A stretch of DNA of 64,000 nt from Spirochaetales bacterium (lineage in GTDB: Bacteria; Spirochaetota; Spirochaetia; SZUA-6; DRHE01). A model generated the notes under the pieces. It did not search any database, was not told the origin of the DNA, and was given only the letters and a program-made list of their open reading frames with translations. This document shows, in pieces, positions 7,899 through 61,604 of the stretch (position 1 is the stretch's first letter; the number at the start of each line of letters is the position of its first letter). The stretch covers positions 2,436-66,435 of the forward strand of contig JAUWZD010000002.1 in assembly GCA_030615505.1 (NCBI GenBank). Reading direction: 5' to 3'. The translations under genes and the position numbers were made by a program.

Positions 7899-10310
7899 AT
7901 GAAAATCCTTATTGTAGATGACATAAAAGCGAACCTCGAGCTGCTGGAAGCCAGGCTGGAGGGGAGCGGCTACGAAGTTGCATCTGCCAGGAACGGGGCA
8001 GAGGCACTGGAGAGCTTAAAAAGGGACTCCATTGACATGATCATCTCTGACATCCTCATGCCCAAGATGGACGGCTACCAGCTGTGCAGGGAGTGTAAGA
8101 GAGACGACACGCTAAGAAATATACCTTTCGTATTCTACACCGCTAATTACACAAACAAGAAGGACGAGGAGTTTGCTTTGAGCCTGGGTGCTGAGAGATT
8201 TATTGTGAAGCCAATGGAACATAAGCGCTTTATGGAGACAATCGAGGATACATTAAAGAATCACAAAAAAGGCCTCATGCCCTCTCCTGAAATGCCGGTA
8301 GAAAAAGAAGAGGCTGACTTCTTGAAGGAGCATAGCGAGCGGCTGATCAAGAAACTTGATCAGAAGGTATTCCAACTGGAGGAGACCGAAAGGACACTTC
8401 AGAATCGTACGTATGATCTTAAAGAGCGGGTCAAGGAGCTTGATTGCCTCTATAGTATTTCTAAACTTGCTGAGGAGGAGGGCATTTCGTTAGAGAAGAT
8501 AACTCAAGGGGTTGTTAATCTCATTCCCCCAGCATGGCAGTATCCGGAGATCACTTGTGCACGAGCAATTTTAGAGGGCCAAGAATTCAGAACGGGAAAT
8601 TTCAAAGAAACCGTCTGGAAGCAGGCAAGCGACATCAAAGTTCATGGCAAGTGGATCGGAACTGTGGAGGTCTATTACCTAGAAGAAAAGCCAGAAATAG
8701 ATGAGGGGCCTTTTCTGAAAGAGGAAAAAGCACTGATCATCGACATTGCCGAGCGATTGGGGAGAATTATCGAGCGAAAGCGGGCGGAGGAGTTGTTGAG
8801 GGAAAGCGAGGAAAAGTTCAGGGAGTTGTTCGATGGCAGCACCGACGCCATTTTTATCGCCAACCCCGAGACGAGGAAGTTGGTTGACTGCAACAAACAG
8901 GCCCAAAAGATCACCGGGTACTCAAGAGAAGAAATCCTTTCTATGAGAGCAGACCAGCTCCATCCCAAAGACAAGGTCAAAAAGACGATGGAAGGCTTCA
9001 AGAAACATGTCGCTGGCGAGTTTTTATTTGTCGAATCAGAAGTCCTGACCAAGGACAAGAAAAGAGTCCCGGTCAGCATCAGTTACTCTCTACTCGAAAT
9101 CGCCAGCGAGAAATATCTCCAGTGCATTTTCAGGGACATTACCGAGAGTAAGCAGGCAGAGCAAAAAATACAGGAATACTCTCAAAACTTGGAACGTATG
9201 GTGGAAGAGAGAACCAAAGAACTTAACCGAGCCCTTTATGACACAGAAGCGGCACGGGACAGGATAGATGGTATCCTCAAGTCTATTGGTGACGGCCTGA
9301 TCGTCACCGATATGTATAACAGGATTATTTTGATGAACCTTGCTGCTGAAGATCTGCTGCGTGTACGCTTTAGTGAGGCGATTGATCGATCCATCGATTT
9401 TACCATCAAGGATAAAACCCTTAGGGATCGAATCAAAACAACCCTGGATAAAAAGAAGGGAGGATATGAGTTTGATTTTGAACTGCCGGGAGAGGATACC
9501 AAGCATCCCCGTATTATGCGTGCCAGGACATCGGTGATTGATGATAAGACCGGTAAGCATACCGGTAGTATAACCATTATCCATGATGTGTCCTACGAGC
9601 GCGAGGTGGACAGAATGAAGACAGAGTTCCTCTCAACAGTAGCCCATGAATTAAGAACCCCTCTCACCTCCATCCAGGGTTTCTCAGAGATTCTCTTAAC
9701 GCGGGATGGTATCAAAGAGGAAGAGAAAGAAGAGTGTCTCTCCTACATCAACAAACAATCGGTAAATCTGGCCACTCTTATCAACGATCTTTTGGATATC
9801 TCCCGTATTGAATCCGGTAAGGTATTTACTCTGAACAAGACTCCCTGCAATATTGCCGATATCATCAAATACACAATTCCCTATTTTCAGACACTGTCTC
9901 CAAAACACAGCTTTGAGGTGGTCTTGCCAGAAGAATCCGTGGAATTGATGGTGGATAAGGAAAAGATGGGGCAGGTGTTAGAGAACCTTCTGAGCAATGC
10001 GGTAAAGTATTCTCCCGAAGGCGGCTCTATTTCCGTGTCGGCAAAAAGGATTGAGGAATTGGAAGGAGACGAAAAACAATCCGCAATCGAGATCAGCGTA
10101 GCTGATACGGGCATGGGGATGAGCCCTGAGCAGGTGGAGAAGATATTTGATAAATTCTACCGTGCAGATGCCTCCAACACTGCCATTCCAGGTACTGGTC
10201 TGGGCATGAACATTGTCCAGTGCATTGTGGAGACCCATGGGGGCAAGGTTTGGGTGGGGAGTGAGCTGGGGAAAGGAACAACGGTTAAATTTACAATACC
10301 AACAAAATGA
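7899..10310 (+). CDS. Hybrid sensor histidine kinase (REC, coiled coil, GAF/PAS-like, PAS, HisKA, HATPase_c).
   Basis: Start chosen at ATG 7899, which has an AAAGGAGG SD, rather than the upstream 7770 start that overlaps the preceding gene. REC (MIISDILMPKMDGYQ), PAS (FDGSTDAIFIANPETRKLVDCN), H-box VAHELRTPLTSIQGFSEILL, and HATPase (DTGMGMSPEQ, GTGLGMNIV). Confidence 0.85.
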   Translation: MKILIVDDIKANLELLEARLEGSGYEVASARNGAEALESLKRDSIDMIISDILMPKMDGYQLCRECKRDDTLRNIPFVFYTANYTNKKDEEFALSLGAERFIVKPMEHKRFMETIEDTLKNHKKGLMPSPEMPVEKEEADFLKEHSERLIKKLDQKVFQLEETERTLQNRTYDLKERVKELDCLYSISKLAEEEGISLEKITQGVVNLIPPAWQYPEITCARAILEGQEFRTGNFKETVWKQASDIKVHGKWIGTVEVYYLEEKPEIDEGPFLKEEKALIIDIAERLGRIIERKRAEELLRESEEKFRELFDGSTDAIFIANPETRKLVDCNKQAQKITGYSREEILSMRADQLHPKDKVKKTMEGFKKHVAGEFLFVESEVLTKDKKRVPVSISYSLLEIASEKYLQCIFRDITESKQAEQKIQEYSQNLERMVEERTKELNRALYDTEAARDRIDGILKSIGDGLIVTDMYNRIILMNLAAEDLLRVRFSEAIDRSIDFTIKDKTLRDRIKTTLDKKKGGYEFDFELPGEDTKHPRIMRARTSVIDDKTGKHTGSITIIHDVSYEREVDRMKTEFLSTVAHELRTPLTSIQGFSEILLTRDGIKEEEKEECLSYINKQSVNLATLINDLLDISRIESGKVFTLNKTPCNIADIIKYTIPYFQTLSPKHSFEVVLPEESVELMVDKEKMGQVLENLLSNAVKYSPEGGSISVSAKRIEELEGDEKQSAIEISVADTGMGMSPEQVEKIFDKFYRADASNTAIPGTGLGMNIVQCIVETHGGKVWVGSELGKGTTVKFTIPTK

Positions 10311-10386
10311 TTTTGGATTGCAGGTTATGGATCACATCGCAAATCTAATATCTGAGAGATAGAAATGAAAAGGAGGAATCGTAAGG

Positions 10387-10752
10387 ATGAAAAAGATTCT
10401 CGTAGTAGATGACCAGCCAGAGGTTAGGAAGCTGGTGGAGATGACCCTCAAGGTTGAGGATTACCAGGTTCTCCAGGCTAAAAGCGGGGAGGAAGCCGTT
10501 GAGATTGGTAAGGCGGAAAAACCTGACCTGATCATCATGGACATCATGATGCCAGGTGATATACATGGACTTGAGGCCACCCGTATTCTAAAAGATGACC
10601 CGGAAACCAAAGAATGCACTATCATTATGTTGACAGCCAAAGGCCAGGAGGCTGACAAGGAAGAGGGGTTTAAAGCAGGAGCAGATGACTATTTTACTAA
10701 ACCCTTCAGCCCTTTGGAATTGATAAGGAAGGTGGAAGAGGTTCTGGAGTAG
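10387..10752 (+). CDS. Single-domain response regulator (CheY-like receiver).
   Basis: KILVVDDQPEVRKL, DLIIMDIMMPGDIHGLEA and FTKPFSPLEL motifs. Confidence 0.85.
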   Translation: MKKILVVDDQPEVRKLVEMTLKVEDYQVLQAKSGEEAVEIGKAEKPDLIIMDIMMPGDIHGLEATRILKDDPETKECTIIMLTAKGQEADKEEGFKAGADDYFTKPFSPLELIRKVEEVLE

Positions 10753-10793
10753 TTGAAACTCGAAACTTGATACTGGAAATTGCGATGTATACT

Positions 10794-10820
10794 ATCGAGC
10801 ATCGAGCATCAAGCATCCAA
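10794..10820 (+). repeat. Heptanucleotide tandem repeat (ATCGAGC x2, ATCAAGC, ATCCAA) in the leader of the HD-GYP gene.
   Basis: Read directly. It lies between the REC stop (10752) and the best start of the HD-GYP gene (ATG 10839, SD GGGGAG). Confidence 0.6.
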
Positions 10821-10838
10821 TATCCAGGGGAGATTTTC

Positions 10839-11639
10839 ATGGAAATAAATGACTTTCCGAAAGATTCTTCTAATTCGAATCAATTAGAAAAATATGCAAA
10901 GGATCTCGCCGAAGTTTGCAAATCTGAAAAGGAAAAAAGAAAAGAGCTTGAAGCTGCAAATCAGCAACTTGTGAAATATGCCGATGACCTGAACAAGACC
11001 ATCTTAGAACTAAAGGGCAGCCAACAAGAACTACAGAAAGCCTACCTTGACACTATTCACCGTCTTGTGCTTGCGGCTGAATATAAAGATGAAGACACGG
11101 GCGACCATATCATGCGCATGAGTCGTTACAGTGCCTTGATTGCTGAAAAACTTGGTCTGTCGGCCAACGAGGTTCAAAATATACTCTATGCTGCCTCCAT
11201 GCATGATGTGGGAAAAATCGGCATACCGGATAGCATTTTAATGAAGCCGGGCAAATTGACAGACGAAGAATTCGGAACCATGAAAACCCATAGCGTAATA
11301 GGGGCAAATATCCTGGCGTATTCAAAGGCTGAGATCCTCAAACTTGCAGAGCAGATAGCCATTTCCCATCATGAAAAATGGAATGGTAAGGGATATCCGC
11401 AGGGCCTTGGCGGTGATAATATTCCTCTCGCAGTCAGGATTGTTGGCCTGGCAGATGTCTTTGACGCTCTTACTTCCAAACGTCCTTACAAAGATCCTTT
11501 TCCTGTAGAAGTTGCGATCGATATTATTAAGAAAGAGCGTGGTGAACATTTTGACCCAGATGTGGTAGATGTTTTTTTGGAAAATATAGATGAAATCGTA
11601 AAAATCAAAGAAGAAGTGGATTCAACAGAAGTTGTGTAA
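10839..11639 (+). CDS. HD-GYP domain phosphodiesterase (c-di-GMP hydrolase family).
   Basis: HDVGKIGIPDSIL and HHEKWNGKGYPQGL motifs. An N-terminal coiled coil. The track start at 10767 is a TTG; ATG 10839 has a good SD. Confidence 0.8.
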   Translation: MEINDFPKDSSNSNQLEKYAKDLAEVCKSEKEKRKELEAANQQLVKYADDLNKTILELKGSQQELQKAYLDTIHRLVLAAEYKDEDTGDHIMRMSRYSALIAEKLGLSANEVQNILYAASMHDVGKIGIPDSILMKPGKLTDEEFGTMKTHSVIGANILAYSKAEILKLAEQIAISHHEKWNGKGYPQGLGGDNIPLAVRIVGLADVFDALTSKRPYKDPFPVEVAIDIIKKERGEHFDPDVVDVFLENIDEIVKIKEEVDSTEVV

Positions 11640-12211
11640 ATGAATAATAAATCCGGGAAAAGAGAATTTAATCGTTTTCCAATTGGACTAGGGGACGTCC
11701 ATTTGTAATTAAATAACTGTAAGACGAGAGTAAGGGATTGGGGCGTAATGTTAAAAATAGAGGTCGGTGATCTACAATTTTGTCGGATGGGGTCAGATCC
11801 GCTGTATAGAAAATGATCCAGACATACCTGAGGCAGTATTGATGATTGTCGATTGAAAAACAAAGAAGGTTTTTGTTTTAAGGAAATATGGTACTTTGTG
11901 GGATGGTTTTAAACAGACTATGGAAAACGCCTATAAATATCTCTTCGGTGCAAGAAGCGGATCAGTTCGAATGTGTCACCTGACAACTTGAGGCCGAGCC
12001 GATAATCTCCGATCCTTAAGCGGTAGTAGCTGGGAAAACCTGCAATCTTTTTGACTCCTTTTAGTCCTGCCGGGGAGTCTAACCTTTTCGATCCGGCAAG
12101 GGAAATAAGCCGATCCCCAGCCGTAAAAAACCGGGGATCGGCTCGCGCTGCAATACTTAAAAGAGCTTGTACACGGCGTCGTTGGACATGTCGAAAAGCC
12201 CGGTATCATCT

Positions 12212-12909
12212 TCATAGGCCTTCGAACGGCTGTCTGGAGAAACAACGATCGTGGGTTGGAACCCCTCCATGACCTTCGATCAGTCTATCGACAAGTTGTT
12301 CCTCCCCGCCCCAGCCGCGGATAACTTTTTCGGGCGGCGCCACATCTCTCTGGGTGTTGTATGGCCTATTCTCCAGGCCCCAGCGAAGGTACATCTCAGA
12401 TCCGAGAATCGACAGCGCCCGGGTAGCCTCCACCACCAGGACCTGGGACAGGGCACCCCCTTTGAGAACCCGGGCGGGGTAGATATCTCCCACCTTTCTC
12501 TGAGGATACAAGTCCAACCCTGATTCTCCGTCGGTAAACAGAAGAGTGACAATTCAAAAGGGGTCCATCCTGATGACGCTCCTGCATACCCCAGCCAGTC
12601 CGTCTATCCCCGTGCGAAAATCTACCGCTTCCACCGCCAGCAGAATCCGCATCTGCGGCGTGATCTGTATCAACGCCTTCGATCCAACAACGGCGGTAAA
12701 GCCTCAACCCGCTGCTTCAACCTCGTGTAGTCCAGGACCAGTGTCTGCGCAATATCGCTGATGGAGTGCCGCTCCGACAACTCGGCCGCCGCCTGCCACA
12801 AGCGCTGCGGTATTCGCGAACCCCTTTTTCTGACGCTGCACCAGCTTTGGAACTCCTTCAACACTTCCGCCGGTGTCCGCCGTCCGTCCGGCAAATTCTC
12901 CTGTTTCAT
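12212..12909 (-). other. GC-rich (~60%) degenerate foreign fragment with short ORFs, including one transposase-like HTH. Unassigned mobile-element remnant.
   Basis: Local GC is clearly higher than the flanks. The ORF 12670..12909 (RRTPAEVLKEF...ISDIAQTL) looks like a transposase N-terminal HTH. A perfect 11-bp inverted repeat lies at 12108–12143. No intact gene. Confidence 0.25.
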
Positions 12910-13112
12910 CAGCCATCCTCCTCGTGATCTTTGGATAGCCTATGCTACACCCTCCGGCTGCGATTTCCACGCACGCTCACCGAAAGGACACGATGAATTG
13001 ACCTTGGCATCACGGTATTCCAAAAGCAGAATGACACCTCCCGCCGTAATAAGTATATGTGGGCTCAAAAGCTCAAATAAACCAAACGCTTACAGAACCT
13101 CTATCTTCCTAA

Positions 13113-13783
13113 TATACCCATATACCAAGAGGGCAAAATGTCCTGCAAACGGTATTCAAAGAACATTTTGATGATTTCAGAGAAGTGTATGATGAGAAAT
13201 ATTCAAAAGCATACGGCAAATATCGTATTGATAGAATTAAAGAAGTTGTAGAAGAATTCATAAAATTCGGAGACTATAAAGAAGGTCTTGCTAGAATAAA
13301 ATCCACAGGATGAAACCATGTACCAACCCTGACTGCGGTCATCCACAGGATGCCCGCTGGGTGCCCGCAGGGTGAAACCAAAACCATGATTATTTTGTTC
13401 CCCTATCCTGCAAGGGATTCTATCTATGTCCGTCTTGTCATCAGAAAAGAACCCTCTTGTTTGCAGAACAGATCACACAAGAAGCTCTCTTAAGGCTTCC
13501 GCACAGACAGTGGGTTTTTTGTATTCCCAAGTGCCTTCGAGTGTTTTTCAAGCATGACAGAATGCTGTTCTCCGATATATCCAGGTTGATCTTTCAGATG
13601 CTCCAATCCTACTATGATAAGGTTTTAGCTAATTCTATCCAAACCGGCGGCACCCTGGACGGATCATCCGGATGGGCACATGACATCGAGCAACCCCGCA
13701 CGTACTACGAGAACTCATGCGTTTACTTGAAGTCCTTGTGTCGGGCAGTTCCCTGTGTAAAGCTCATTCAAATGATTGTTTGA
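13113..13783 (+). pseudogene. IS91-family (rolling-circle, HUH Y2) transposase N-terminal fragment. It has no start codon, is interrupted by two repeat-element insertions, and is truncated after the zinc-binding/N-terminal domain.
   Basis: Translation gives FKEHFDDFREVYDEKYSKAYGKYRIDRIKEVVEEFIKFGDYKEGLARIK, then [insert] CTNPDCGH [insert] DYFVPLSCKGFYLCPSCHQKRTLLFAEQITQEALLRLPHRQWVFCIPKCLRVFF. This matches the conserved IS91-family N-terminus (GF-RvrC-CG-SCK-CPSC...HRHWVFTlP). Confidence 0.7.
13302..13386 (+). repeat. Repeat-element copy A. A 17-bp short form (13302–13318) and a 45-bp long form (13342–13386) flank 23 bp of transposase coding sequence.
   Basis: TCCACAGGATGAAACCA, and TCCACAGGATG CCCGCTGGGTG CCCGCAGGGTG AAACCAAAACCA. 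Deleting both restores the transposase reading frame. Confidence 0.7.
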
Positions 13784-13945: not shown

Positions 13946-15213
13946 ATGAGGAAGGTTCCACAGGAGAAATGGCATACGCTTTTGAAAGATCATCACGAGG
14001 GCTATATCTCATGGGAGCAGTTTGAAATAAACCGAAAACGCATCGGGTCGAACGGGCGGCCAGGAAAGGGCCCAGGAGCACCACGGGAGGGGGATGGACT
14101 TCTGCAAGGGATCATTCTCTGCGGACGCTGTGGAAGAAGGATGAGAATCGCTTACGGAAAAGGCTCCAGGCCGACCCATTATAGCTGCGCACAAGCGCGC
14201 AAGCAAACAGGTGCTCCGGTGTGTCAGAGTTTTGGAGCACGCCGGCTGGAGCAAGCAGTGGAAGGACTCTTGTTGGATTGCCTGTCACCGCTGGGCGTAG
14301 AGGCTATGCTGGAAGCGGCGAAGGTGTATACCGAGGATAACGAGGTGGAACGGACCCGATGGAAACAAAACATCGAGAGAGCACACTACGAGATGAATCT
14401 CGCTCGCCGGCAGTATGATGCGGTGGATCCAGAGAATCGGCTTGCCGGAAGGTCCCGACCTTGGGGTTGCTCGGGAGCTGGAAAGACGGTATGAAAAGGC
14501 ACTTAGAGCCATAGAAGAGATTGAGTCGGAAGCGTATTGCCCGATGTCTGATCGAGAACGTAGTGGTAACCTCACCGCGAGAAGGCACAATGCTTATAGC
14601 CCAGGTGCACTGGAAAGGCGGCGAGGTTACAAAGCTCGATGTACTCAAGGGCAAGAGTGGCATTCACCGTTATGTGTCGCCTCTTGAACTCGTTGAGTTA
14701 ATACGTACGCTGGCAACTGAGTTTTCAGACATCCAGATCGCACGCATTTTGCACCGCAAGAGACTGAAGACACCAAAGGGTCGGCCTTTCATGGCTTACC
14801 ATGTAGCCAACGTGCGAAATAAATATAACATTCCTAAGGGTCTACGGGTGCCACTACGAGGGGAAGACGTCTATACGGCAGAAAAAGCAGCAGAACTGTT
14901 GGGTGCCTGTCGAAGTACAATTATCCGGTGGTTAGAAGTTGGCTTGCTACGCGGTTCACAATTGACATCTGGAGCTCCGTGGCGTATCGTAGTAACCAAA
15001 GAGGACATCGAAAGGCTAAAACCGAATGAGGTTGGTGAAGGTAGGTATCCGCTTAAGGGAGCGGCTTCGGCCTTAGGGGTGAGCCAGCAGACCGTTTTGC
15101 AAAAGGTTAAGTCGGGAGAGCTTGAAGCCATTCGAGTGCGAACAGGCAGGCGTGTAGGCTGGAGAATTCGTTTACCCATAAGCATTTACGACAATCAACC
15201 AGCCTTGTTTTAA
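13946..15213 (+). pseudogene. Large serine recombinase, C-terminal two-thirds, split over three frames by frameshifts. The catalytic resolvase domain is absent.
   Basis: Recombinase domain and zinc beta-ribbon (LLQGIILCGRCGRRMRIAY...YSC). A coiled coil in frame 0 (ELERRYEKALRAIEEIE). A C-terminal segment in frame 1 with two excisionase-type HTH motifs. Frames 2, 0 and 1 meet at about 14415–14687. Confidence 0.65.
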
Positions 15214-15232
15214 TGGTTTTATGATTTTGTAT

Positions 15233-15586
15233 CTAAAAGGCTTTTTCCTTAAAATCTCTAAATGTTATTATCTCGATCCTTTTAAACGGATTTAAAACAA
15301 GTAAATCTTTATCACCTGTTATTATATAATCAGCTCCTCCATTTACGGCAGTTTCTAAAATAAAATTATCCTTAACATCTCGACACGCATTTACTCTTTG
15401 CTTTATTTCAACTTTAATACTCCACCTTTGCAGCAAGCGTAACAGAACTAAACGTCTTCTTTTAATAATATATTGTTGAAGTTTAGGCCTTGTAATTACT
15501 CTGAATAATTCGTTAAGCTGCTTCCGGGATGTTAATATTAGCAGATCTTTACTTTCTATTGCATTTTCGAACTCTACTACCTTCAC
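15233..15586 (-). CDS. PIN-domain toxin-like protein (PIN_3-like). It is N-terminally short and may lack the first catalytic Asp.
   Basis: C-terminal DNFILETAVNGGADYIITGDKDLLVLNPF matches the PIN_3 consensus. GTG start, with an in-frame stop 5 codons upstream. Confidence 0.5.
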   Translation of the reverse strand: MKVVEFENAIESKDLLILTSRKQLNELFRVITRPKLQQYIIKRRRLVLLRLLQRWSIKVEIKQRVNACRDVKDNFILETAVNGGADYIITGDKDLLVLNPFKRIEIITFRDFKEKAF

Positions 15587-15800
15587 GATACATCTTCTCT
15601 CTTACTGCTTCAACTTCTTCTGTTATCTCTTCAAATGTAACAGGAATATCTTTTAATTCTTCCTTGACCCTGCTCCACTGGGCAAATAATGTTTTATCAT
15701 CCAGATACTCTGCTAATTTCTCCTGTTCATCAAACGGGAGCTGGTCAATAATATTTTTCACCTGATTAAAATCCAAGTCTATTTTCAAATTGACAGACAT
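15549..15800 (-). CDS. Putative antitoxin partner of the PIN protein.
   Basis: 83-aa acidic ORF directly upstream, overlapping the toxin start by 38 nt. No family recognised. Confidence 0.35.
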   Translation of the reverse strand: MSVNLKIDLDFNQVKNIIDQLPFDEQEKLAEYLDDKTLFAQWSRVKEELKDIPVTFEEITEEVEAVREKMYREGSRVRKCNRK

Positions 15801-15945
15801 ATGTTTCTCCTTCTTCTGTTAATATACAGTATTTATTGTTCTTTTTCTATTCCTTTGCTTTCCTGCCTGATTTAACTGTCAAGAGGCTAGTACTTTTAGG
15901 GAGCGCTTTCAGATAGATAGGTGATGAGGATATTCCCACTCCGCC

Positions 15946-18285
15946 TTAAAACACCTTCTCTAAGACTTCTTCCATACGGTTCACGGGGTGAAACTGAATC
16001 CCCTTTTTTATATGTCCAGGTATCTCTTCAAGATCCTTCTCATTCTGACCGGGAATAATGATCTCCTTAATATTATTTCTCTTTGCAGCTATTACTTTTT
16101 CTTTTAATCCGCCTATGGGGAGAACCTGTCCGACCAAAGACAGCTCTCCTGTCATGGCCAGGGATTTTTTGATCTTCTTTTTTCTTACTAAAGAGAGCAG
16201 ACAGGAAGCCATGGTGATTCCGGCTGAAGGGCCGTCCTTAGGGGTCGCACCGGCGGGGACGTGAAGATGTATCTGATTGTTCTCAAAAAACTCGTGTTTT
16301 ACGCCGAAGTCTTCTGCAATATGCCGTACATAGGTGTAGGCAATATTAGCGGATTCCTGCATGACATTTCCAAGCTGACCGGTTAATCGAAAGCCTTCCT
16401 TTCCGGGATTGGCCACTGCCTCCACAATAAGAATCTCGCCTCCCATTTGAGTCCATGCCAATCCAATGGCCATACCTGGCCTGGTTATCTTTTTAATCCC
16501 CTCTTCAAAAAAGATTGGTTTCCCGAGATATTTTTCCAATTCCTCCTTGGTGATGATTAGCGGTAAAGAGATATTTTCCAATATCACCTGCTTAGCTACT
16601 TTACGATGAATTTTATCCAAAGCCTTTTCATAATTACGAAGACCCGCTTCCCGTGCATATCCTTCCGCTATTTGGAGCAAAGCCGGTTTTTCATATTTTA
16701 TATCAGATCTTTTAATGCCGGTACGCCCTAAGGATTTTGGAATGAGGTATTTTTTTGCAATCGTCATCTTTTCTGAGTTTATATATCCCGAGAGGCGGAT
16801 CACTTCCATGCGGTCTAAAAGCGGGGCCGGTATGGTGTCCACTGTATTTGCCGTGGTCAGGAACAGGATATGGGAGATATCAAAGGGAAGATCCAGGTAA
16901 TGATCACGGAAGGCTACATTCTGTTCGGGATCCAGGACTTCAAGGAGAGCGGATGAGGGATCGCCCTGAAAAGAAACTCCCAGTTTATCGATCTCGTCGA
17001 TCATAAAAACAGGATTCTTCACCTTTACAATTTTCAGGCCCTGGATAATTTTTCCCGGCATGGCCCCAACGTAGGTTCTCCTGTGGCCTTTAATCTCGGC
17101 CTCATCTCTCATTCCTCCCACTGAGAACCGGAAGAATTTTCTGCCTAAGGCCCGAGATATGGATTTCCCCACTGAGGTTTTGCCCACTCCCGGAGGTCCC
17201 ACTAAACAGACAATGGAGCCCTTGGTGTCTTTCTTGAGCTTTCTTACAGCAAGGTATTCTAAAATTCGTTCCTTAACATCTTCAAGCCCATAATGATCCG
17301 CCTCCAGTATTTTTTGAGCCCGTTTCATGTCGATGGCTTCTGGTTTTGGATTATTCCAGGGGAGAGAGATGATGGTTTCTAAGTAATTTCTGGTAACTAT
17401 GAATTCCGATGAGTTTGCATCCATTAAGGAAAACTTCTCCAGTTCCTGCTCAACCTGCTCTGCCACCTCTTTCTCCAGTTTAAGCTTGCTGACTGCTTCC
17501 TTGAACCTTAAATATTCACTGCTCTTAGAATCAACAGGCATACCTAGTTCGGATTTTATTGCCTTGAGCTCTTCTTTAAGGAAATATTCCCTCTGGCTCT
17601 TGGTAATTTTCTCCTGGATCTGTTTCTGGATCTTCTTCTGAATGCTAAGAAGCTCCTGTTCTTTCTTGATAAAAATTAACGCCCTCATCATGCGCTCGTG
17701 CACGTCTACAAGCTCTAGAATCTTCTGCTGTTCCATTCTGTCAATATTAAGTATTGAGGTGATGAAATCGGCTATTTTTCCCGGGTGGTCGATGTTCACC
17801 ATATTCAGGCGCATCTCTTCTGAAAAGAGGGGATTATTTTCCGAAATCTGTTTCATTTCGCTTATCAGGGATCGAGTAAGGGCCCGGACTTCATCTGTCT
17901 CAACATTCTCGTCTTCCAGATAGTTTACGGCTACGCCTATGGGATTTTCCTTATGTATAAACTTCTTGATACTGAAGCGCTTCAGTGTCGAAATAAAGAG
18001 ATTGACCCCGCCGTCCGGCAGGTTTATCTTCTTAATAATCTTAACAGCTGTGCCGATTGTGAATAGATCATCCCCTGACGGGTTTTCAACCTCTGGAGAA
18101 CGGGTAAGAACAAGACCGATAAAGCCGTCGCTGGATATTGATTTTTCCACTATCTTCACATCATCTTCAGTTAGGATCATAAGTGGCATGAAAATACCGG
18201 GGAAAATGGGCTTTCCCGTGATTGGAATTATATATAATTTATTTGGAAGCACCTGGGATGTGGGCACAATCTGTTTGTCAGGCAT
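15946..18285 (-). CDS. lon: ATP-dependent protease Lon.
   Basis: LON N-terminal domain, AAA+ Walker A GPPGVGKTS, and S16 protease Ser in PKDGPSAGITMASCLLSL. Confidence 0.95.
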   Translation of the reverse strand: MPDKQIVPTSQVLPNKLYIIPITGKPIFPGIFMPLMILTEDDVKIVEKSISSDGFIGLVLTRSPEVENPSGDDLFTIGTAVKIIKKINLPDGGVNLFISTLKRFSIKKFIHKENPIGVAVNYLEDENVETDEVRALTRSLISEMKQISENNPLFSEEMRLNMVNIDHPGKIADFITSILNIDRMEQQKILELVDVHERMMRALIFIKKEQELLSIQKKIQKQIQEKITKSQREYFLKEELKAIKSELGMPVDSKSSEYLRFKEAVSKLKLEKEVAEQVEQELEKFSLMDANSSEFIVTRNYLETIISLPWNNPKPEAIDMKRAQKILEADHYGLEDVKERILEYLAVRKLKKDTKGSIVCLVGPPGVGKTSVGKSISRALGRKFFRFSVGGMRDEAEIKGHRRTYVGAMPGKIIQGLKIVKVKNPVFMIDEIDKLGVSFQGDPSSALLEVLDPEQNVAFRDHYLDLPFDISHILFLTTANTVDTIPAPLLDRMEVIRLSGYINSEKMTIAKKYLIPKSLGRTGIKRSDIKYEKPALLQIAEGYAREAGLRNYEKALDKIHRKVAKQVILENISLPLIITKEELEKYLGKPIFFEEGIKKITRPGMAIGLAWTQMGGEILIVEAVANPGKEGFRLTGQLGNVMQESANIAYTYVRHIAEDFGVKHEFFENNQIHLHVPAGATPKDGPSAGITMASCLLSLVRKKKIKKSLAMTGELSLVGQVLPIGGLKEKVIAAKRNNIKEIIIPGQNEKDLEEIPGHIKKGIQFHPVNRMEEVLEKVF

Positions 18286-34087: not shown

Positions 34088-34160
34088 CGCAGGGTAGAGC
34101 AGTTGGAAGCTCGTCGGGCTCATAACCCGGAGGTCGCAGGTTCGAGTCCTGCCCCTGCTA
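34088..34160 (+). tRNA. tRNA-Met (anticodon CAT) with initiator-type features.
   Basis: The cloverleaf folds by hand: acceptor CGCAGGG/CCCTGCT with an unpaired C1·U72, D-arm GAGC/GCTC, anticodon stem with three G:C pairs next to the loop CTCATAA, and T-arm GCAGG-TTCGAGT-CCTGC. It is close to E. coli tRNA-fMet. No CCA is encoded. Confidence 0.85.
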
Positions 34161-34255: not shown

Positions 34256-35431
34256 GTGCCTCGATATAAGGAGCCGTTTTCTCTCTATCCCAGAAAAACA
34301 AAAAAGGGCGTTGCCGTCTGGTATTATCGAACTTACGATAAGGATGGCGAGCGTACTTATGGCCGATCTACCGGCGAATCTTCAAAGACTCTTGCCCGAC
34401 AATATTGTCAGTCTCTGATTTCCAAAGGCAGATTGATTCCTCAGAAATCACCTACGCTCGCAGAGTGGACAGAGAAAAGGCGATGGTGGATATGGGGAGA
34501 GTGTCTGTATATCAAGGGTCGGCTTGCTCGCTCAGATGTGGATAGACCGGGAATTACTCATCGTTATTGCGATTTGAATTATCAAGTTATGATGAAGAAA
34601 ATTCTATCGATTCATGGAGACAAGCAGCTTGACTCTATTATGCCCGAGGATTGTGAAAAACTATTATTCTCTTGGGCAAATCAGGGAGTCAGTTATAAGA
34701 CTGCAAATAATTGGGCTTCAGTATATCGGGTTATGATGGGCGAGGCAGCCAGATTAAGGATGATAGACGAAAATCCCTGGAAGCGAGTGCTTTCATTATC
34801 TTCCAGCACAAAGAGGCGGGGGATTCTCACGATGGCCGAAGCCCGAACGCTTCTGAATCCGGCGACAATAAACGAAGTGTGGGACAAACACCATATGTAT
34901 TATTGCATCAACCTGATTGCATCTCTCACAGCGATGAGACAGGGGGAGATCCTCGCACTGAGGAAAGAAGATGTGTTCTCCGATCATTTGCATATCAGGC
35001 ATTCATGGTCTGCAAAATATGAGTTGGGGAAAACTAAGACAAAAGAAATTGGCGATGCGCCGATCCCCGGATTTCTGTATCGAGAAATTGAAAAGTATCT
35101 GGAATATGATGGTTATATTTTCAGCTTCAATGGGGGGAAGAGGCCAGCTACAGGGAACCGTGTAACCGAATGGCTATATCGTGCCATGAGAAATATCGGG
35201 ATTTCAGAGCATGAGAGGGTGGAGCGGAATTTAACCTTCCATAGTTGGCGTCATTTTTTCAATACGTATCTGCGGAGCCGGGGCGTGCCAGATTCGCAAA
35301 TAAGGAAAGTTACCCGGCATAAAACCGAAGAAATGACAGAGCATTATACAGAATTCGGATTGGAACATTATAAAGAAACATACGATGCTCAGGATGGATT
35401 CGGGGAATTGATACAGGAGGAAAAAGGATGA
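34256..35431 (+). CDS. Tyrosine-type phage integrase.
   Basis: C-terminal catalytic R...HSWRHFFNTYL...Y pattern and an N-terminal arm-binding region (KKGVAVWYYR). Confidence 0.85.
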   Translation: MPRYKEPFSLYPRKTKKGVAVWYYRTYDKDGERTYGRSTGESSKTLARQYCQSLISKGRLIPQKSPTLAEWTEKRRWWIWGECLYIKGRLARSDVDRPGITHRYCDLNYQVMMKKILSIHGDKQLDSIMPEDCEKLLFSWANQGVSYKTANNWASVYRVMMGEAARLRMIDENPWKRVLSLSSSTKRRGILTMAEARTLLNPATINEVWDKHHMYYCINLIASLTAMRQGEILALRKEDVFSDHLHIRHSWSAKYELGKTKTKEIGDAPIPGFLYREIEKYLEYDGYIFSFNGGKRPATGNRVTEWLYRAMRNIGISEHERVERNLTFHSWRHFFNTYLRSRGVPDSQIRKVTRHKTEEMTEHYTEFGLEHYKETYDAQDGFGELIQEEKG

Positions 35432-51910: not shown

Positions 51911-52158
51911 TTTCCGCCTCCGTTCTTAGAGCCAAACTTCTCTATCACGCCAACACCCAGGAGTCCTGCGCCTGCATATATCAGTGTCTTGCCAGCCGCC
52001 AGTGCAGTATGGGGATCGGCGACTATTCTGGAAAGAGAAACGACGCCGACTATGCCGAGAAAAACCCCTCCAGCACCTATCAGAATTGTCCCGATCAGGC
52101 GCTTGCTACTTTTATTTCCTTGAGAATCATAAAAAAAGCCTGTTTTAATTTCATTCAT
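51907..52158 (-). CDS. Small two-TM membrane protein (holin-like).
   Basis: Gly-zipper TM segments GAGGVFLGIVGVV and AGAGLLGVGV. Confidence 0.4.
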   Translation of the reverse strand: MNEIKTGFFYDSQGNKSSKRLIGTILIGAGGVFLGIVGVVSLSRIVADPHTALAAGKTLIYAGAGLLGVGVIEKFGSKNGGGK

Positions 52159-52759
52159 ATTTCAGTTCCTTGTAGATAATTGCAAATTTTTTTACGTTCC
52201 GATCGAATTCGTCGATATCCAGACGTCTATTGAATCCATTCCCGTCTGCGAATCTGTCGGGCCAGGAGTCATTGAAAATAATCTCATCGGTTTTATTATC
52301 GTAGGCAACGACAGCGATAAAATGACCGGGTTCCACAAGGCAGATCTGGGCTGCGCATCCGAGCTTCAAATATGCGGCCAGTTTTCTAAAACTGCTAAGC
52401 CAAACGAATGTGCCATCGGCGTTGAAAACCTGTTTGACAGCAAACGGATACAATTGAGGGATTCGGTTGCCGGGGAATGAAACCGGGTCAACGTCATGGC
52501 GGATTTTTTCAAGCTCCTCATAATTCCGGGGATCGTTGAAAAAATCCATAAGAACCTCTTCGGGTTGCGGCTTATACGGCCCCGGACAATAGATTTTCAG
52601 GTTGTAGCCAAAGGCAGCTAGGCAATTTACGGCAGCCGTTGGTCCGCAGGATTCGAGCCAGCCTTCTCCCTTTCGCTTTTTGAGGAGCTGTTCGGTGGGA
52701 TTGTTAGTTTGACAATAATATTTGTCGGGATCCGCCCAAAATTTAGCCCCGTGAATCAT
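52151..52759 (-). CDS. Papain-fold cysteine peptidase (Peptidase_C39_2-like). No signal peptide.
   Basis: Catalytic Cys in ESCGPTAAVNCLAAFGY, His in PGHFIAVVAYD, and Asn/Asp in IIFNDSW. Confidence 0.5.
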   Translation of the reverse strand: MIHGAKFWADPDKYYCQTNNPTEQLLKKRKGEGWLESCGPTAAVNCLAAFGYNLKIYCPGPYKPQPEEVLMDFFNDPRNYEELEKIRHDVDPVSFPGNRIPQLYPFAVKQVFNADGTFVWLSSFRKLAAYLKLGCAAQICLVEPGHFIAVVAYDNKTDEIIFNDSWPDRFADGNGFNRRLDIDEFDRNVKKFAIIYKELKYE

Positions 52760-52995
52760 TTAGTTACCAGCTCCTTAATCTCTTTTACATCGTCCGAAAT
52801 ATTATCCAGTTTCGTTTCAATCACCGCTTGCTGAACTGAAAGTATTCTGATCTGTCCCTCATGGCTTTTGATGTCATTCCGCATATCACGAGTGGGGATC
52901 GTAGCCATGGTTATAATGATGCCGCCGAAAAATATACAGACTGCAATTATCACCGCTACCCATTTCGCGGTCGAGCTCTTGTAATTCAATCCCAT
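52756..52995 (-). CDS. Small membrane protein with an N-terminal TM and a periplasmic coiled coil.
   Basis: WVAVIIAVCIFFGGIIITMA is the TM, followed by a heptad-rich helix. Confidence 0.4.
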   Translation of the reverse strand: MGLNYKSSTAKWVAVIIAVCIFFGGIIITMATIPTRDMRNDIKSHEGQIRILSVQQAVIETKLDNISDDVKEIKELVTK

Positions 52996-58182: not shown

Positions 58183-58190
58183 AGTGCCTC

Positions 58191-58237
58191 CTGTATAAAA
58201 AACTATACAGGGGGAGGCGGTTTGTCAACCTTGTCAA
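58191..58237 (-). promoter_or_regulatory. Late-operon promoter/operator: a perfect palindrome CTGTATA-N6-TATACAG (58191–58210) overlapping a -10-like TATAGT and abutting the SD. Two TTGTCAAC direct repeats supply TTGACA -35 hexamers.
   Basis: Minus strand reads TTGACAaggTTGACA-15nt-TATAGT...TATACAGGAGGcactATG. Confidence 0.4.
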
Positions 58238-58368
58238 CTCGAAAAAAAAAGTTATCAGTTTACACGCTCAATACTACTCACGTTTACCCTCTGATTCTAC
58301 AAGATCGAGCACAGTACCTTAATCTATTAGCAATTATCATGCCATGCTCCGGGGAACGGGATGCATGC

Positions 58369-58402
58369 GGGGGGAATTTAGGGGGAATTTAGGGGGAATA
58401 TT
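58369..58402. repeat. Three direct repeats of GGGGGAATTTA (11-bp period) about 190 bp upstream of the late operon.
   Basis: Read directly: GGGGGGAATTTAGGGGGAATTTAGGGGGAATATTT. Confidence 0.5.
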
Positions 58403-58844
58403 TCAGCTATAAAAAAGGCAGCCATATAAGCTGCCCAACCGACTTACGTCAGGGAGTCGTAAATATATATTAATTCACGGAATCCATAGTATCAAGTGTT
58501 CTTTTAGCACCGCTCATTATCGCCTAAAAGTATCGCAATAAATACCGCTGAGACGAGCATGAAGGGGTCTACAAGCGACTTTGTTAGCCAAATGGTACTT
58601 GGACACCATCTTTGCCTCATAATATCACATCGCTACAAATGTAAATCCTTATATTATCAGTAAATAAATATCTACTATTTCACCCCTCTCACACCGCCGT
58701 TATTTGCCTCTTTTCCCCGATTCTGCTATACTAATCTCATGGCTAAATTCAGAAAACAATTAGGCAAAAGCAGAGTACAAAAAGGTGGCAATAACGGAAC
58801 GCCAGTAAATCCAAAGCCACAGGCTTTGCGTCCTAAACCTCCTC

Positions 58845-59501
58845 TTGAAGATGGTAAAACACATGGCTAAATCCATATTCAGTATCACCACCGATGTGAA
58901 GAAATACACAAAGCAAATGAACCGGGTCAACAAGGAGCTGCTGCCGAAGGCGATAGGTAATACAATGAATCGTGCTTGCAACGCATCTCATAGCCGGAGC
59001 ATACGGAATATTAAAAGCGATCTTATTCTCCGTAATCAATACACCGAACGATCCATGATCCTCTGGAAATCGAAATACAAGCCTGGCCGGAGCATCGACC
59101 GTATCAGTGCTACTACTGGCTCTAAATCTCCTTACCTCCCGCTCCAGGAAACAGGCGGAGTTGTGAGAGCAAAAAAGAGCAAGATCCCTGTCCCCACCCT
59201 GGCGGGCAGGCGAGGCAAGTGGAGAAAGCCGATCCCGCCAAGCTTGCGGATGAACCGGATGGGAGCGATAGGCACTGAAGGCTCTAAGTTCTTTTTTATG
59301 AAAAGCCCAGGCGGGAAAAAGGGGATTTTCTATCGTAAGTCAAAAAAGAAGATCGTCAAAGTAAGGGATATTTCCAGGCGGAGCTATCGGATCAAGGCTA
59401 CTCGTTGGCATAGTGAGGCAGTAAAGAAATTCGGCAATAAGCGTATTATGGGCCAGCTATTTGTCCAGGAGGCTAAGAGGCAGTTGGCGAAGGTGAGTTA
59501 G
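58845..59501 (+). CDS. Hypothetical very basic phage protein.
   Basis: 218-aa ORF, Lys/Arg-rich. Start uncertain (TTG at 58845, ATG at 58851 or 58866). Confidence 0.35.
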   Translation: MKMVKHMAKSIFSITTDVKKYTKQMNRVNKELLPKAIGNTMNRACNASHSRSIRNIKSDLILRNQYTERSMILWKSKYKPGRSIDRISATTGSKSPYLPLQETGGVVRAKKSKIPVPTLAGRRGKWRKPIPPSLRMNRMGAIGTEGSKFFFMKSPGGKKGIFYRKSKKKIVKVRDISRRSYRIKATRWHSEAVKKFGNKRIMGQLFVQEAKRQLAKVS

Positions 59502-59527: not shown

Positions 59528-59842
59528 TCAGGTTATCGCCATGAGAGCGATGGTCCCGCCAAGAACAATCAGCATGATGTGTAAAATCGTGTATATCAAG
59601 GCCAACGGGATTTGTTTGGCGATCTCCTCTTTTTTTCTACGCTTGATCAACTCAATGAAGGTGTGAATATGATACAATGCTCCCAAAACACCCGCAATAA
59701 AGATAGTGATCTTCGCGGTACAAGCTAATCTGGGTGGAATTTCCCCTCCGAATCTAAACAGCGCGGAAATGCCAAAATATAGCAATAGAGATAGATAAGT
59801 GGTTCTTATTTGAACACCCTTCATAAACTGTATCTGATCCAT
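59528..59842 (-). CDS. Small polytopic membrane protein (accessory gene).
   Basis: Three or four TM helices. ATG 59842 has a GGAGG SD. Low-GC block. Confidence 0.45.
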   Translation of the reverse strand: MDQIQFMKGVQIRTTYLSLLLYFGISALFRFGGEIPPRLACTAKITIFIAGVLGALYHIHTFIELIKRRKKEEIAKQIPLALIYTILHIMLIVLGGTIALMAIT

Positions 59843-59895
59843 AGCGACCTCCAGCTTCAAGTATTTGACCCCTTCAGACACGGCTGGGGAGGGGT

Positions 59896-60258
59896 TTACC
59901 AAGTAAGTTTTTCTTGGCTAGCTTCTAATTGTTCTCTATACATCATAAAAATAGTCGAATAATTGCACATGCCAATTGAGCAATATGTCTCAATTACATT
60001 ATCTAATAATTTTCTGTTTTTCGCTTTCATCAATTTCTTAAATGCCTCAAGCTCTTCCTTTTCCATCATCCGTAATATTAACGGATCACCCATGCCGATA
60101 GCAGTATAGGTTTTTTTAACGTTCTCCTGAATAAAGGCGATAACTTCCTGTTTTTCTTTATCCGTTCCCTTGAAATCTAATGGATGAATAAAATCATCAG
60201 CAAATAGAGGCGCACAAACAAAAAATATAACAGTCAAGATAAATGCTTTTTTCTTCAT
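59896..60258 (-). CDS. Small secreted protein (accessory gene).
   Basis: Signal peptide MKKKAFILTVIFFVCAPLFA, SD AGGAGG. Low GC. Confidence 0.45.
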   Translation of the reverse strand: MKKKAFILTVIFFVCAPLFADDFIHPLDFKGTDKEKQEVIAFIQENVKKTYTAIGMGDPLILRMMEKEELEAFKKLMKAKNRKLLDNVIETYCSIGMCNYSTIFMMYREQLEASQEKLTW

Positions 60259-60293
60259 CTTTCCTATCCTCCTAGTTCCAACAAGGTAAAAAG

Positions 60294-60842
60294 TTAATTT
60301 AGCTTAAATTCAATCCAATGATTAACTATATAATCATCGCTTATATTCATTTCATGGGTGATCCACATTTCCGGGAACCATTTACCTACTATTAGCGTGC
60401 TGAAAGGAGCAAAGATAAGCTTTTTCTCTCCTTCATGAATTACATAATATGGGTCAAATTTCCTCTCGCCAATATTACTTTGAACATTATAGTCTTTGAC
60501 TAATTGATCGTTTATTTTCTTGAAATCCTCCCTATATTTAGCTTCGTCTCTGTATTCTCTAGAATCAAAAAACCAGTCAATATATACGAGTTCTTTATGC
60601 TGATTAAAATTAAAAACGACTTCAACATTTTCTTCAGCATAGTGCAAGCCTTTATATCGAAACTCGAAAGCATAAGGATGTTCTATTTCCTTGGTAGGCT
60701 CTCCATATTTCTCTTTTACATCTTCCAGAAACATATTCCAGTCAATTTCAAAAGGAAGCGTTAATTTTGATTCTGCAAAGACAAAGACAGCTATAAAAAG
60801 CAATAGAACGGTAATTGCGAAAGTGCCGATTATCTTTTTCAT
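60294..60842 (-). CDS. Secreted protein (accessory gene).
   Basis: Signal peptide MKKIIGTFAITVLLLFIAVFVFA, AGGAGG SD at ATG 60842. About 35% GC. Confidence 0.45.
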   Translation of the reverse strand: MKKIIGTFAITVLLLFIAVFVFAESKLTLPFEIDWNMFLEDVKEKYGEPTKEIEHPYAFEFRYKGLHYAEENVEVVFNFNQHKELVYIDWFFDSREYRDEAKYREDFKKINDQLVKDYNVQSNIGERKFDPYYVIHEGEKKLIFAPFSTLIVGKWFPEMWITHEMNISDDYIVNHWIEFKLN

Positions 60843-60956
60843 ATTTGCCTCCTGGTTCCAATATATCATTTCAAGTATTTTACATCCAGATAATTTTTAC
60901 AAGCAAAAAAATCAAAGATTATGCAGCCGGAGGCCGATTTTCGATATAAAGGGATT

Positions 60957-61325
60957 CTATGAATGAACCTGGTCAGTATTCTCTTTTTCTCTCCTAGCCT
61001 GTTCTGCCATCGATTTAAGTATTTCTCGAATAGCATTTAATTTGACATCGTTCAAGACCTTGAGATCTTCCACAATATCGGCGGGTGGAAGCCATTGAGC
61101 TTTTTTCCAAATTACCAAACTTTCAACAGTTGTTTCGAGAACTTTAGCAATCATGACGGCTCTATCCGCAGGAGGGAATCTATCCTCTGAAATCCAATTT
61201 GAAACTGTAGAAGATGCTAGATTTTCGCCAAATTTAAGAGCAATTGCTGCCCGAAGAGAAGCCCAACTATCATATCCCAATTCTTCCATCCTTTTTTCAA
61301 CTTTACCCCAGAAAAGGTTAATCAT
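60957..61325 (-). CDS. XRE-family HTH protein, putative prophage repressor.
   Basis: HTH ASSTVSNWISEDRFPPADRAVMIAKVL. Divergent from the early genes. Confidence 0.55.
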   Translation of the reverse strand: MINLFWGKVEKRMEELGYDSWASLRAAIALKFGENLASSTVSNWISEDRFPPADRAVMIAKVLETTVESLVIWKKAQWLPPADIVEDLKVLNDVKLNAIREILKSMAEQARREKENTDQVHS

Positions 61326-61412: not shown

Positions 61413-61604
61413 ATGAAACGATCAAATGCTCCTAAACACGAGAATAAAAAACATCCTTTGACGGTGAACCTACCATTTACGGAAGAACAAGAGCGACTTT
61501 TCAATGAATATTGCCATAAATATCAAAAAATCAAAGGCCGTTTTGTTATAAGTCTTATTTTACAGGAAATCGAAAAAGAAGCTCTTGAGAGCGTGAAGAT
61601 ATAA
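61413..61604 (+). CDS. Small early protein (Cro-like position).
   Basis: 63 aa, the first gene divergent from the repressor. Confidence 0.3.
   Translation: MKRSNAPKHENKKHPLTVNLPFTEEQERLFNEYCHKYQKIKGRFVISLILQEIEKEALESVKI

Follow-up and report, generated by a model that had tools for sequence, protein, structure and literature searches.

A portable gene for a predicted exported protein within probable accessory cargo beside a CI-type prophage repressor

We analysed a 64,000-nt stretch of DNA from a Spirochaetales bacterium (contig JAUWZD010000002.1, positions 2,436 to 66,435; hereafter the window) with respect to a block of three minus-strand open reading frames (ORFs), genes A, B and C (59528-60842), which run in the same direction and sit in the lysogeny/immunity module of a prophage. 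The block is real, but as an accessory region of a prophage it is ordinary, since functions in exclusion, defence and conversion are well known from accessory genes beside prophage repressors; the family of gene B is its only element of wider interest. B encodes a compact, highly conserved, predicted exported protein with a confident structural model and no solved or annotated relative, and it is portable single-gene cargo, occasionally picked up by phages and present on at least three kinds of mobile element. The reading that we favour, and regard as reasonably probable, is that the block represents lysogeny-module accessory cargo of the moron type acting in the cell envelope.

The first-pass annotation of the window had proposed three genes with strong Shine-Dalgarno (SD) sequences, which was borne out when the shorter starts were used for A and C (Table 1). 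The longer 191-aa form of A (start 60869) lacks an SD sequence, as does the longer 124-aa form of C, which begins with TTG at 59902 and overlaps B. The gap between the repressor gene and A is 114 nt, followed by 35 nt between A and B, 53 nt between B and C, and 26 nt between C and the convergent ORF218.

Table 1 Features of the prophage and of the A-B-C block, in window coordinates
Feature	Coordinates	Strand	Product	Remarks
tRNA-Met	34088-34160			integrase next
integrase	34256-35431			after tRNA-Met
structural operon	~36 kb to 58.2 kb	-		baseplate, tape measure, sheath, major head, protease, portal, large and small terminase, ParB-like
ORF218	58845-59501	+	structural (minor tail / neck-type)	converges on gene C; left edge of cargo slot
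gene C	59842-59528	-	104 aa	ATG 5 nt after GGAGG
gene B	60258-59896	-	120 aa	AGGAGG upstream
gene A	60842-60294	-	182 aa	ATG 5 nt after AGGAGG
CI-type repressor	60957-61325	-	122 aa	Pfam PF07022 Phage_CI_repr, 24.8 bits (cut-off 22), E 2.9e-5
orf63	61413-61604	+		first gene of the divergent rightward early operon (cro position)

Homologues of gene B formed 97 clusters with 49-78% identity, nearly all of them 117-122 aa long and none containing a Pfam domain; a Pfam scan of 66 family members returned sub-threshold noise only, for example CbiN matching signal peptides. The earlier statement that the three products belong to no recognisable family thus held for Pfam, NCBIfam, PHROGs and PADLOC, where nothing significant was found for A, B or C, but failed for B, which is a member of a conserved, unnamed family of predicted exported proteins. 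The B product begins with MKKK, followed by a hydrophobic stretch and LFA↓DD. Across the family, the first ~20 residues vary in sequence but always keep their hydrophobic character, and this segment mostly closes with an A-x-A-like motif; conservation begins directly after it, a pattern indicating a cleaved signal peptide. The closest clade (70-78% identity) conserves a Cys inside the signal peptide (…FVC…) that is absent from most members, and B of this clade may be lipid-anchored through this residue, Cys15.

The mature part of B (~100 aa) consists of two tandem helix-loop-helix repeats (TYxxIGM...MM). Comparison of the N-terminal with the C-terminal half by hhalign (probability 97%, E 3e-11) identified them as homologous, the aligned halves reading IKxNVKxTYTxIGMGDPxTLRMMEKEEL and LLDxVIxxYCxIGMCNYxTILMMYxEQ. 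An AlphaFold 2 (AF2) model built from 66 sequences had a mean confidence score (pLDDT, predicted local distance difference test) of 88.7 and contained four helices (33-52, 59-76, 82-94 and 100-114); searched against PDB and BFVD, it gave no match. Six Met residues (56, 64, 65, 97, 105 and 106) were invariant or nearly so, and R63, E66, K74 and the C-terminal W120 were invariant. Cys93 and Cys98 were both present in 58 of the 66 sequences and both missing from seven, with a single sequence retaining only one of them; this joint retention or loss points to a structural disulfide and, through it, to a periplasmic location. Taken together, B is probably a Sec-exported, pseudo-symmetric four-helix protein stapled by a disulfide.

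The same residues could be read differently, with B as a periplasmic Cu(I)/Ag(I) or hydrophobic-ligand binder that confers an envelope stress or metal tolerance trait not related to phages. The six Met residues, as read from the sequence, stay near-invariant across ~50% identity and form symmetric pairs in the two repeats, accompanied by the Cys pair; such strict conservation hints at a function, since L, I, V and M normally interchange in protein cores, and the occurrence of the family as stand-alone cargo in environmental, mostly marine genomes would suit a tolerance trait. We nevertheless consider this explanation quite unlikely, as B resembles neither CusF, CopC and PcoE nor other metal-binding families, its neighbours are not copper or silver resistance genes, and the concerted loss of the Cys pair in 7/66 sequences is the behaviour of a structural disulfide rather than of a ligand.

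To place B in its genomic settings, we compared 37 loci carrying homologues, each fetched with 10 kb on either side, for base composition relative to the flanks and for neighbouring genes. The family spans many phyla, mostly from marine samples, and its hosts include Spirochaetaceae, many Gammaproteobacteria, Bacteroidota, single-cell genomes of Pelagibacteraceae, Desulfobacterota and Verrucomicrobiota. In 35 of the 37 loci, B had a lower GC content than its flanks, with differences of up to 0.35. When the neighbours in these loci were clustered all against all, no conserved partner gene emerged; exported or membrane proteins frequently adjoin B, and because their frequency was not clearly above background we do not claim a two-component module. 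Mobile contexts were diverse. In a viral contig from IMG/VR (L048), B directly follows a gene for a 216-aa CI-like HTH_19 protein; elsewhere it lies between a Bro-N antirepressor and a terminase gene (L030), adjoins ogr/gpD in a P2-like prophage of Pantoea, stands between ParA and an integrase on a Prim-Pol element (L060/61), occurs near Peptidase_M78, HTH_17 and ThsB-TIR genes (L002), or lies beside a type III secretion system translocon and IS21 on a Yersinia plasmid.

These settings bear on another explanation, in which B would be an orphan periplasmic immunity or inhibitor protein directed against a toxin or a lysozyme-type enzyme, with A and C as unrelated passengers. B is stand-alone, small and periplasmic by prediction, its very high conservation across phyla suggests a conserved partner, it is found in accessory islands beside toxin-antitoxin, TIR and GmrSD genes, and T4 Sp, a periplasmic inhibitor of phage lysozyme, sets a precedent (PMC11436027). 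A cognate toxin gene, however, adjoined B in no locus, and B matched no known immunity or lysozyme-inhibitor family, leaving this explanation decidedly improbable in our judgement.

Motifs around several homologues pointed to a further route of transfer. In three independent locus pairs (L003/4, L007/8 and L011/12), GTTATGT was located 33-35 nt upstream of the B ATG and its reverse complement, ACATAAC, 2-36 nt after the B stop, and two other loci (L014 and L021) carried the downstream ACATAAC only. The R'/R'' core site of integrons has the consensus G↓TTRRRY (PMC9892861), and each of the two motifs contains one mismatch to the core consensus (GTTRRRY / RYYYAAC). A strict attC search, requiring both consensus cores and a stable fold, found nothing; the complementary cores with one mismatch came from a relaxed core search. 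Judged by the core motifs alone, the B homologues of several genomes look like integron cassettes, and they are similar to the cassettes of sedentary chromosomal integrons in being promoterless single ORFs with complementary cores at the R' and R'' positions. They differ in that the homologue cores deviate at one position, and the window copy of B lies in a prophage and lacks the core motifs within 80 nt upstream and 120 nt downstream. The repeated acquisition of a single gene by integrons and phages suggests that B likely gives a simple, portable phenotype. The more specific proposal, that B founds a new periplasmic family of Met-rich four-helix bundles, shuttled singly by integrons, prophages and small integrative elements across many bacterial phyla and giving envelope protection, either as a new class of phage exclusion or inhibitor protein or as a new Met-lined Cu/Ag or ligand-binding module, we consider unlikely as a whole.

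Several observations were made in passing at the B loci. On the chromosome of a gammaproteobacterial metagenome-assembled genome (OZ241844.1, L010), a ~400-bp patch of 33-44% GC at 9981-10380 corresponds exactly to the B gene within DNA of ~73% GC; the gene follows a GC-rich hairpin, and the sequence downstream appears peptide-permease-like. The leaders of the Marinobacter and Colwellia copies of B are almost identical (GTTATGTTTTTA...ATTAAGGAGAAAATAATG). Downstream of the B homologue in L003 (flanks 7960-8450), three copies of ~1.5-kb repeat units occupy 8400-13530, adjoin a group II intron reverse transcriptase and several HigB/HTH (helix-turn-helix) toxin-antitoxin pairs, and hold a 50-nt hairpin-containing element at 8400, 11224 and 12753. 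This array resembles an integron array invaded by attC-targeting introns; integron arrays have been reported as stores of defence genes (bioRxiv 10.1101/2024.07.02.601686). In four Flavobacteriaceae loci (L020 11606-12142, L025 3046-3618, L027 9437-9988 and L028 10354-10914), a secreted protein of ~180 aa adjoins B, with 52-71% identity among the four and no Pfam match. In marine single-cell genomes labelled Thiothrix and Pelagibacteraceae (L035 7116-10718 and L032/L033 9100-10920), B is found among series of small secreted proteins, with near-identical signal peptides within each series (MKTKLLTICLLLFTSQVFA...; MKKLSLYIFLVLM...). A ~110-aa zinc-ribbon protein with two transmembrane (TM) helices stands directly beside B in three unrelated genomes (L013 2787-3143, L017 1820-2149 and L030 10358-10693), and other small membrane proteins in that position are DUF898-like (L006) or bPH_2 (L011/L012).

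The other two genes of the block had no such distribution. In 5.8e9 proteins, A and C each returned only a self-match; mature A did the same in a full phmmer scan of 1.84e9 representatives and had no sequence match in PDB. A and C thus appear to be lineage-specific ORFans (ORFs without homologues) that occupy a variable slot. The A product begins with MKK, ~20 hydrophobic residues and VFA↓ES (MKKIIGTFAITVLLLFIAVFVFA↓ESK), consistent with a signal peptide or an anchor, so that A and B each carry a predicted export signal, in agreement with the two signal peptides proposed in the first-pass annotation. Hydropathy of C showed strong segments at 38-63 and 74-104 and a weaker one at 14-31, with a KRRKKEE loop between the last two TM segments; C is predicted to be a small inner-membrane protein with 2-3 TM segments, fewer than the 3-4 initially suggested. 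An AF2 single-sequence model of A reached a pLDDT of 47, and for this reason it was left out of the fold search. A relationship between A and the conserved 180-aa secreted neighbour of the flavobacterial B homologues was considered and rejected (hhalign probability 2.7%).

Complete lack of homologues raises the question of whether A and C are genes at all, or chance frames in recombination junk, with B as the sole real cargo. This would agree with the empty searches of the 5.8e9 proteins and with the length of C, as a stop-free run of at least 104 codons arose in 9% of shuffles of the 1.4-kb region. A run of at least 182 codons, as in A, was found in 0/2000 shuffles of the local region, at 33% GC, and GC at the first codon position of A far exceeds that at the second, a coding-type periodicity. 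Both genes have a consensus SD sequence at the correct spacing and canonical export or TM features, and neither is overlapped by another long ORF; C draws its support from its SD sequence, hydrophobic segments, KRRKKEE loop and operon position and from the lack of a competing ORF. We therefore assign only a very small probability to the possibility that either one is spurious.

The best evidence for the accessory nature of the block came from a 1.9-kb marine contig, L063, from sample SAMN10404973, which is listed in bioRxiv 10.1101/2021.10.26.465843. Its gene order is a ribbon-helix-helix-like gene, a 62-aa gene, B (77% identity), an unrelated 78-aa gene with one TM segment, and a convergent ORF218 homologue (69%). 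At the same junction as in the window, L063 retains B but has no A and carries another gene in place of C, indicating an accessory block rather than a fixed three-gene system. Other relatives of ORF218 have an integrase/excisionase pair or tail genes at this position. The slot is therefore variable, in line with the accessory location claimed before, with the difference at the same position seen in one short syntenic contig. The notion of a coherent three-gene unit had to be abandoned, given that B alone recurs elsewhere, that A is absent and C swapped in L063, and that C has backbone-like GC content. Searches for phage DNA similarity and in IMG/VR via ORF218, the repressor and orf165 recovered no comparable immunity region, and the relatives found through TerL were without the region. 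Within the prophage, the block occupies a position outside the conserved morphogenetic and replication modules.

Base composition set A and B apart from the phage backbone. Their GC contents (0.328 and 0.325) were the lowest in the window, and the lowest 1-kb interval of the 64 kb starts at 59901 with a GC of 0.327, compared to a window mean of 0.474 (standard deviation 0.044) and 0.49 in the structural region. At the first, second and third codon positions (GC1, GC2 and GC3), A had 0.45/0.22/0.32, and GC1/GC2 of B were 0.38/0.26. Gene C resembled the backbone (GC 0.419, GC3 0.495), so the composition is unlike the backbone for A and B and not for C. The low-GC tract extends to ~62 kb and includes the repressor gene (0.396), orf63 (0.339) and orf165 (0.394). 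The contrast of 35% to 50% GC on which the first-pass annotation had relied was consequently confirmed for A and B, but it did not extend to C, and it was not specific to the block.

The expectation of an own promoter was not supported, as no independent promoter or terminator rose above shuffle chance. Promoter-like and terminator-like sites flanking the block were not found, the counts being at or below shuffle expectation, and neither end of the block had a convincing terminator, RNA folds there being unremarkable. The 114-nt spacer between the repressor gene and A (60843-60956) folds with -19.1 kcal/mol, a z-score of +0.46 against shuffles; its only hairpin, at 60936-60924, has 5 bp and lacks a T-run, and no site in it was called as promoter-like. 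The common strand, short gaps, strong SD sequences and lack of a terminator suggest that A-C are most likely transcribed with the repressor gene in the lysogen, and read-through from that gene is more likely than an own promoter. Expression of A-C in the lysogen is thus probable, judging by co-orientation and the missing terminator only.

Under the reading of the block as envelope-acting accessory cargo, A, B and C would be horizontally acquired cargo in the lysogeny module, transcribed with the CI-type repressor gene by read-through in the lysogen. A would be exported or anchored at its N-terminus, B exported by the Sec pathway and C inserted in the inner membrane, so that the lysogen would gain a benefit exerted in the periplasm or membrane. 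This benefit could be superinfection exclusion, at the injection or the peptidoglycan step, or protection against another periplasm-acting agent; a protective or exclusion benefit of A-C is a guess, and one that we hold to be doubtful. The envelope-directed products and, for A and B, the foreign composition support the overall reading. Homology to virion proteins, which the first-pass annotation had named as the finding that would overturn it, did not emerge, since no virion, lysis or defence family in Pfam, PHROGs, PADLOC or NCBIfam was matched.

Several points weigh against this reading. The classical moron anatomy is incomplete, an own promoter and terminator not having been found. A and C lack homologues, and their status as functional genes depends on intrinsic signals alone; the length of C is by itself not significant because 9% of shuffles reach it. 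Low GC does not single out the block, because the whole immunity segment is GC-poor. A, B and C show no homology to known exclusion or defence proteins: the best match to known anti-phage defence (PADLOC-DB and NCBIfam anti-phage models) was no better than E 0.037, and, with Imm, Sp, SieA, SieB, gp15, Ltp, Cor and Llp taken as the known exclusion proteins, no PHROG or Pfam match of any kind fell below E 0.004 for the three. B was found in 0 of 50,697 phage records and in one of 2.9 million IMG/VR contigs; it is mostly chromosomal, and its function need not concern phages at all. Given its mainly non-phage distribution, B is about as likely to serve in the periplasm independently of phages as to act in exclusion, for example through a Met-lined metal or ligand site or as immunity against a periplasmic toxin or enzyme.

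We also weighed the possibility that the block is a lysis cassette and hence ordinary late-function DNA, with C as a class I-like holin and A and B as a spanin pair or secreted endolysin. The S105 holin of phage lambda is similar to gene C in size and TM count (104 aa, about 3 TM). The N-terminal anchor of A is i-spanin-like, the signal peptide of B contains a Cys, and in the rest of the prophage, as far as it lies within the window, neither an endolysin nor a holin of a classical family was recognised. We gave the idea hardly any credence, as neither A, B nor their neighbours matched an endolysin family, and C stops at its last TM segment without the charged C-terminal tail typical of holins. 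B is not spanin-like: it is a helical protein of ~100 aa found mostly outside phages, with the signal-peptide Cys absent in most members, and A-C are co-directional with the repressor gene and converge on a structural gene, which puts them outside the late operon. An alternative lysis candidate is a pair of minus-strand genes just after the portal gene (52151-52995); one encodes a TM protein of 79 aa and overlaps the start of the other, whose 202-aa product has a borderline match to Peptidase_C39_2. Both proteins are kept in a related viral contig (L043; 72% and 61% identity), and it is possible that they serve in lysis or head processing.

Known systems offer partial parallels to the favoured arrangement of envelope-acting accessory cargo. 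In phage lambda, the accessory genes rexA and rexB are co-transcribed with cI in the lysogen, and RexA is cytoplasmic. Rex is listed as an exclusion system (PMC11436027). As in lambda cI-rexAB, the cargo described here lies directly downstream of the repressor gene, shares its strand and is not separated from it by a terminator, and it includes a gene for a small polytopic protein predicted to reside in the inner membrane; unlike lambda, there is no sequence similarity, two products are predicted to be exported, and co-transcription is inferred. Superinfection exclusion at the envelope is represented by T4 Imm and Sp, P22 SieA and HK97 gp15, all of them small, situated in the inner membrane or facing the periplasm, and directed against either DNA entry or the tail lysozyme (PMC11436027, PMC10883804). 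The block is similar to T4 Imm plus Sp in combining a predicted membrane protein with a predicted periplasmic one, but it has no PHROG, Pfam or structural match to any of the four, and B occurs mostly outside phages. Ltp of the Streptococcus thermophilus phage TP-J34, a lipoprotein encoded in the lysogeny module, is a small exported helical repeat protein (PMC3952083). B is likewise a small helical repeat protein, predicted to be exported and encoded in a lysogeny module, and the clade-specific Cys makes lipid anchoring possible; unlike B, Ltp belongs to a Gram-positive host, there is no sequence or fold match between them, the B lipobox is non-canonical (FFVC), and the Cys is mostly absent in the family.

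The prophage that carries the block is myovirus-like, temperate and integrated at tRNA-Met. Its tRNA-Met and integrase genes, together with terminase, portal, capsid, sheath, tape measure and baseplate genes, upheld the earlier assignment of the block to a prophage. The position proposed for the block, between a late-operon control region and the repressor, proved correct on the repressor side, where the repressor is of CI type; the other side adjoins the structural ORF218, and the "control region" lies beyond it at 58183-58844. The block is part of the lysogeny/immunity module, in which the repressor gene is the first of a leftward lysogeny transcription unit, divergent from plus-strand early genes that begin at 61413. 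The repressor also matches PHROG transcriptional regulator or repressor families (phrog_8, 2967, 4 and 3037). Pfam and PHROG returned no family match for orf63, whose role is assigned from position only. The early genes to the right of the repressor lie on the plus strand and run past the window edge. In a Logan contig (L001), a gene resembling PAPS (3'-phosphoadenosine 5'-phosphosulfate) reductase is found farther along the early region, and gene C is called there as 104 aa. Rfam yielded no RNA family for 58-62 kb.

ORF218 matched a minor tail protein family over its full length (phrog_4688, E 4e-16) and a tail completion/Neck1 family (phrog_27, E 0.002). It stands alone on the plus strand behind a 660-bp non-coding region (58183-58844), apart from the minus-strand structural operon. 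Its homologues (L049-L057, 55-72% identity) lie within structural operons or before a convergent integrase/excisionase pair; they were seen directly after the small terminase gene (L055), in a head-tail operon (L056) and before a convergent integrase gene (L052). The placement of ORF218 compared with its relatives suggests a rearrangement at the junction. In the host part of the window, the second-lowest GC patch (~15100-16200, 0.35 over 1 kb) lies upstream of a 779-aa minus-strand ORF at 15946-18285.

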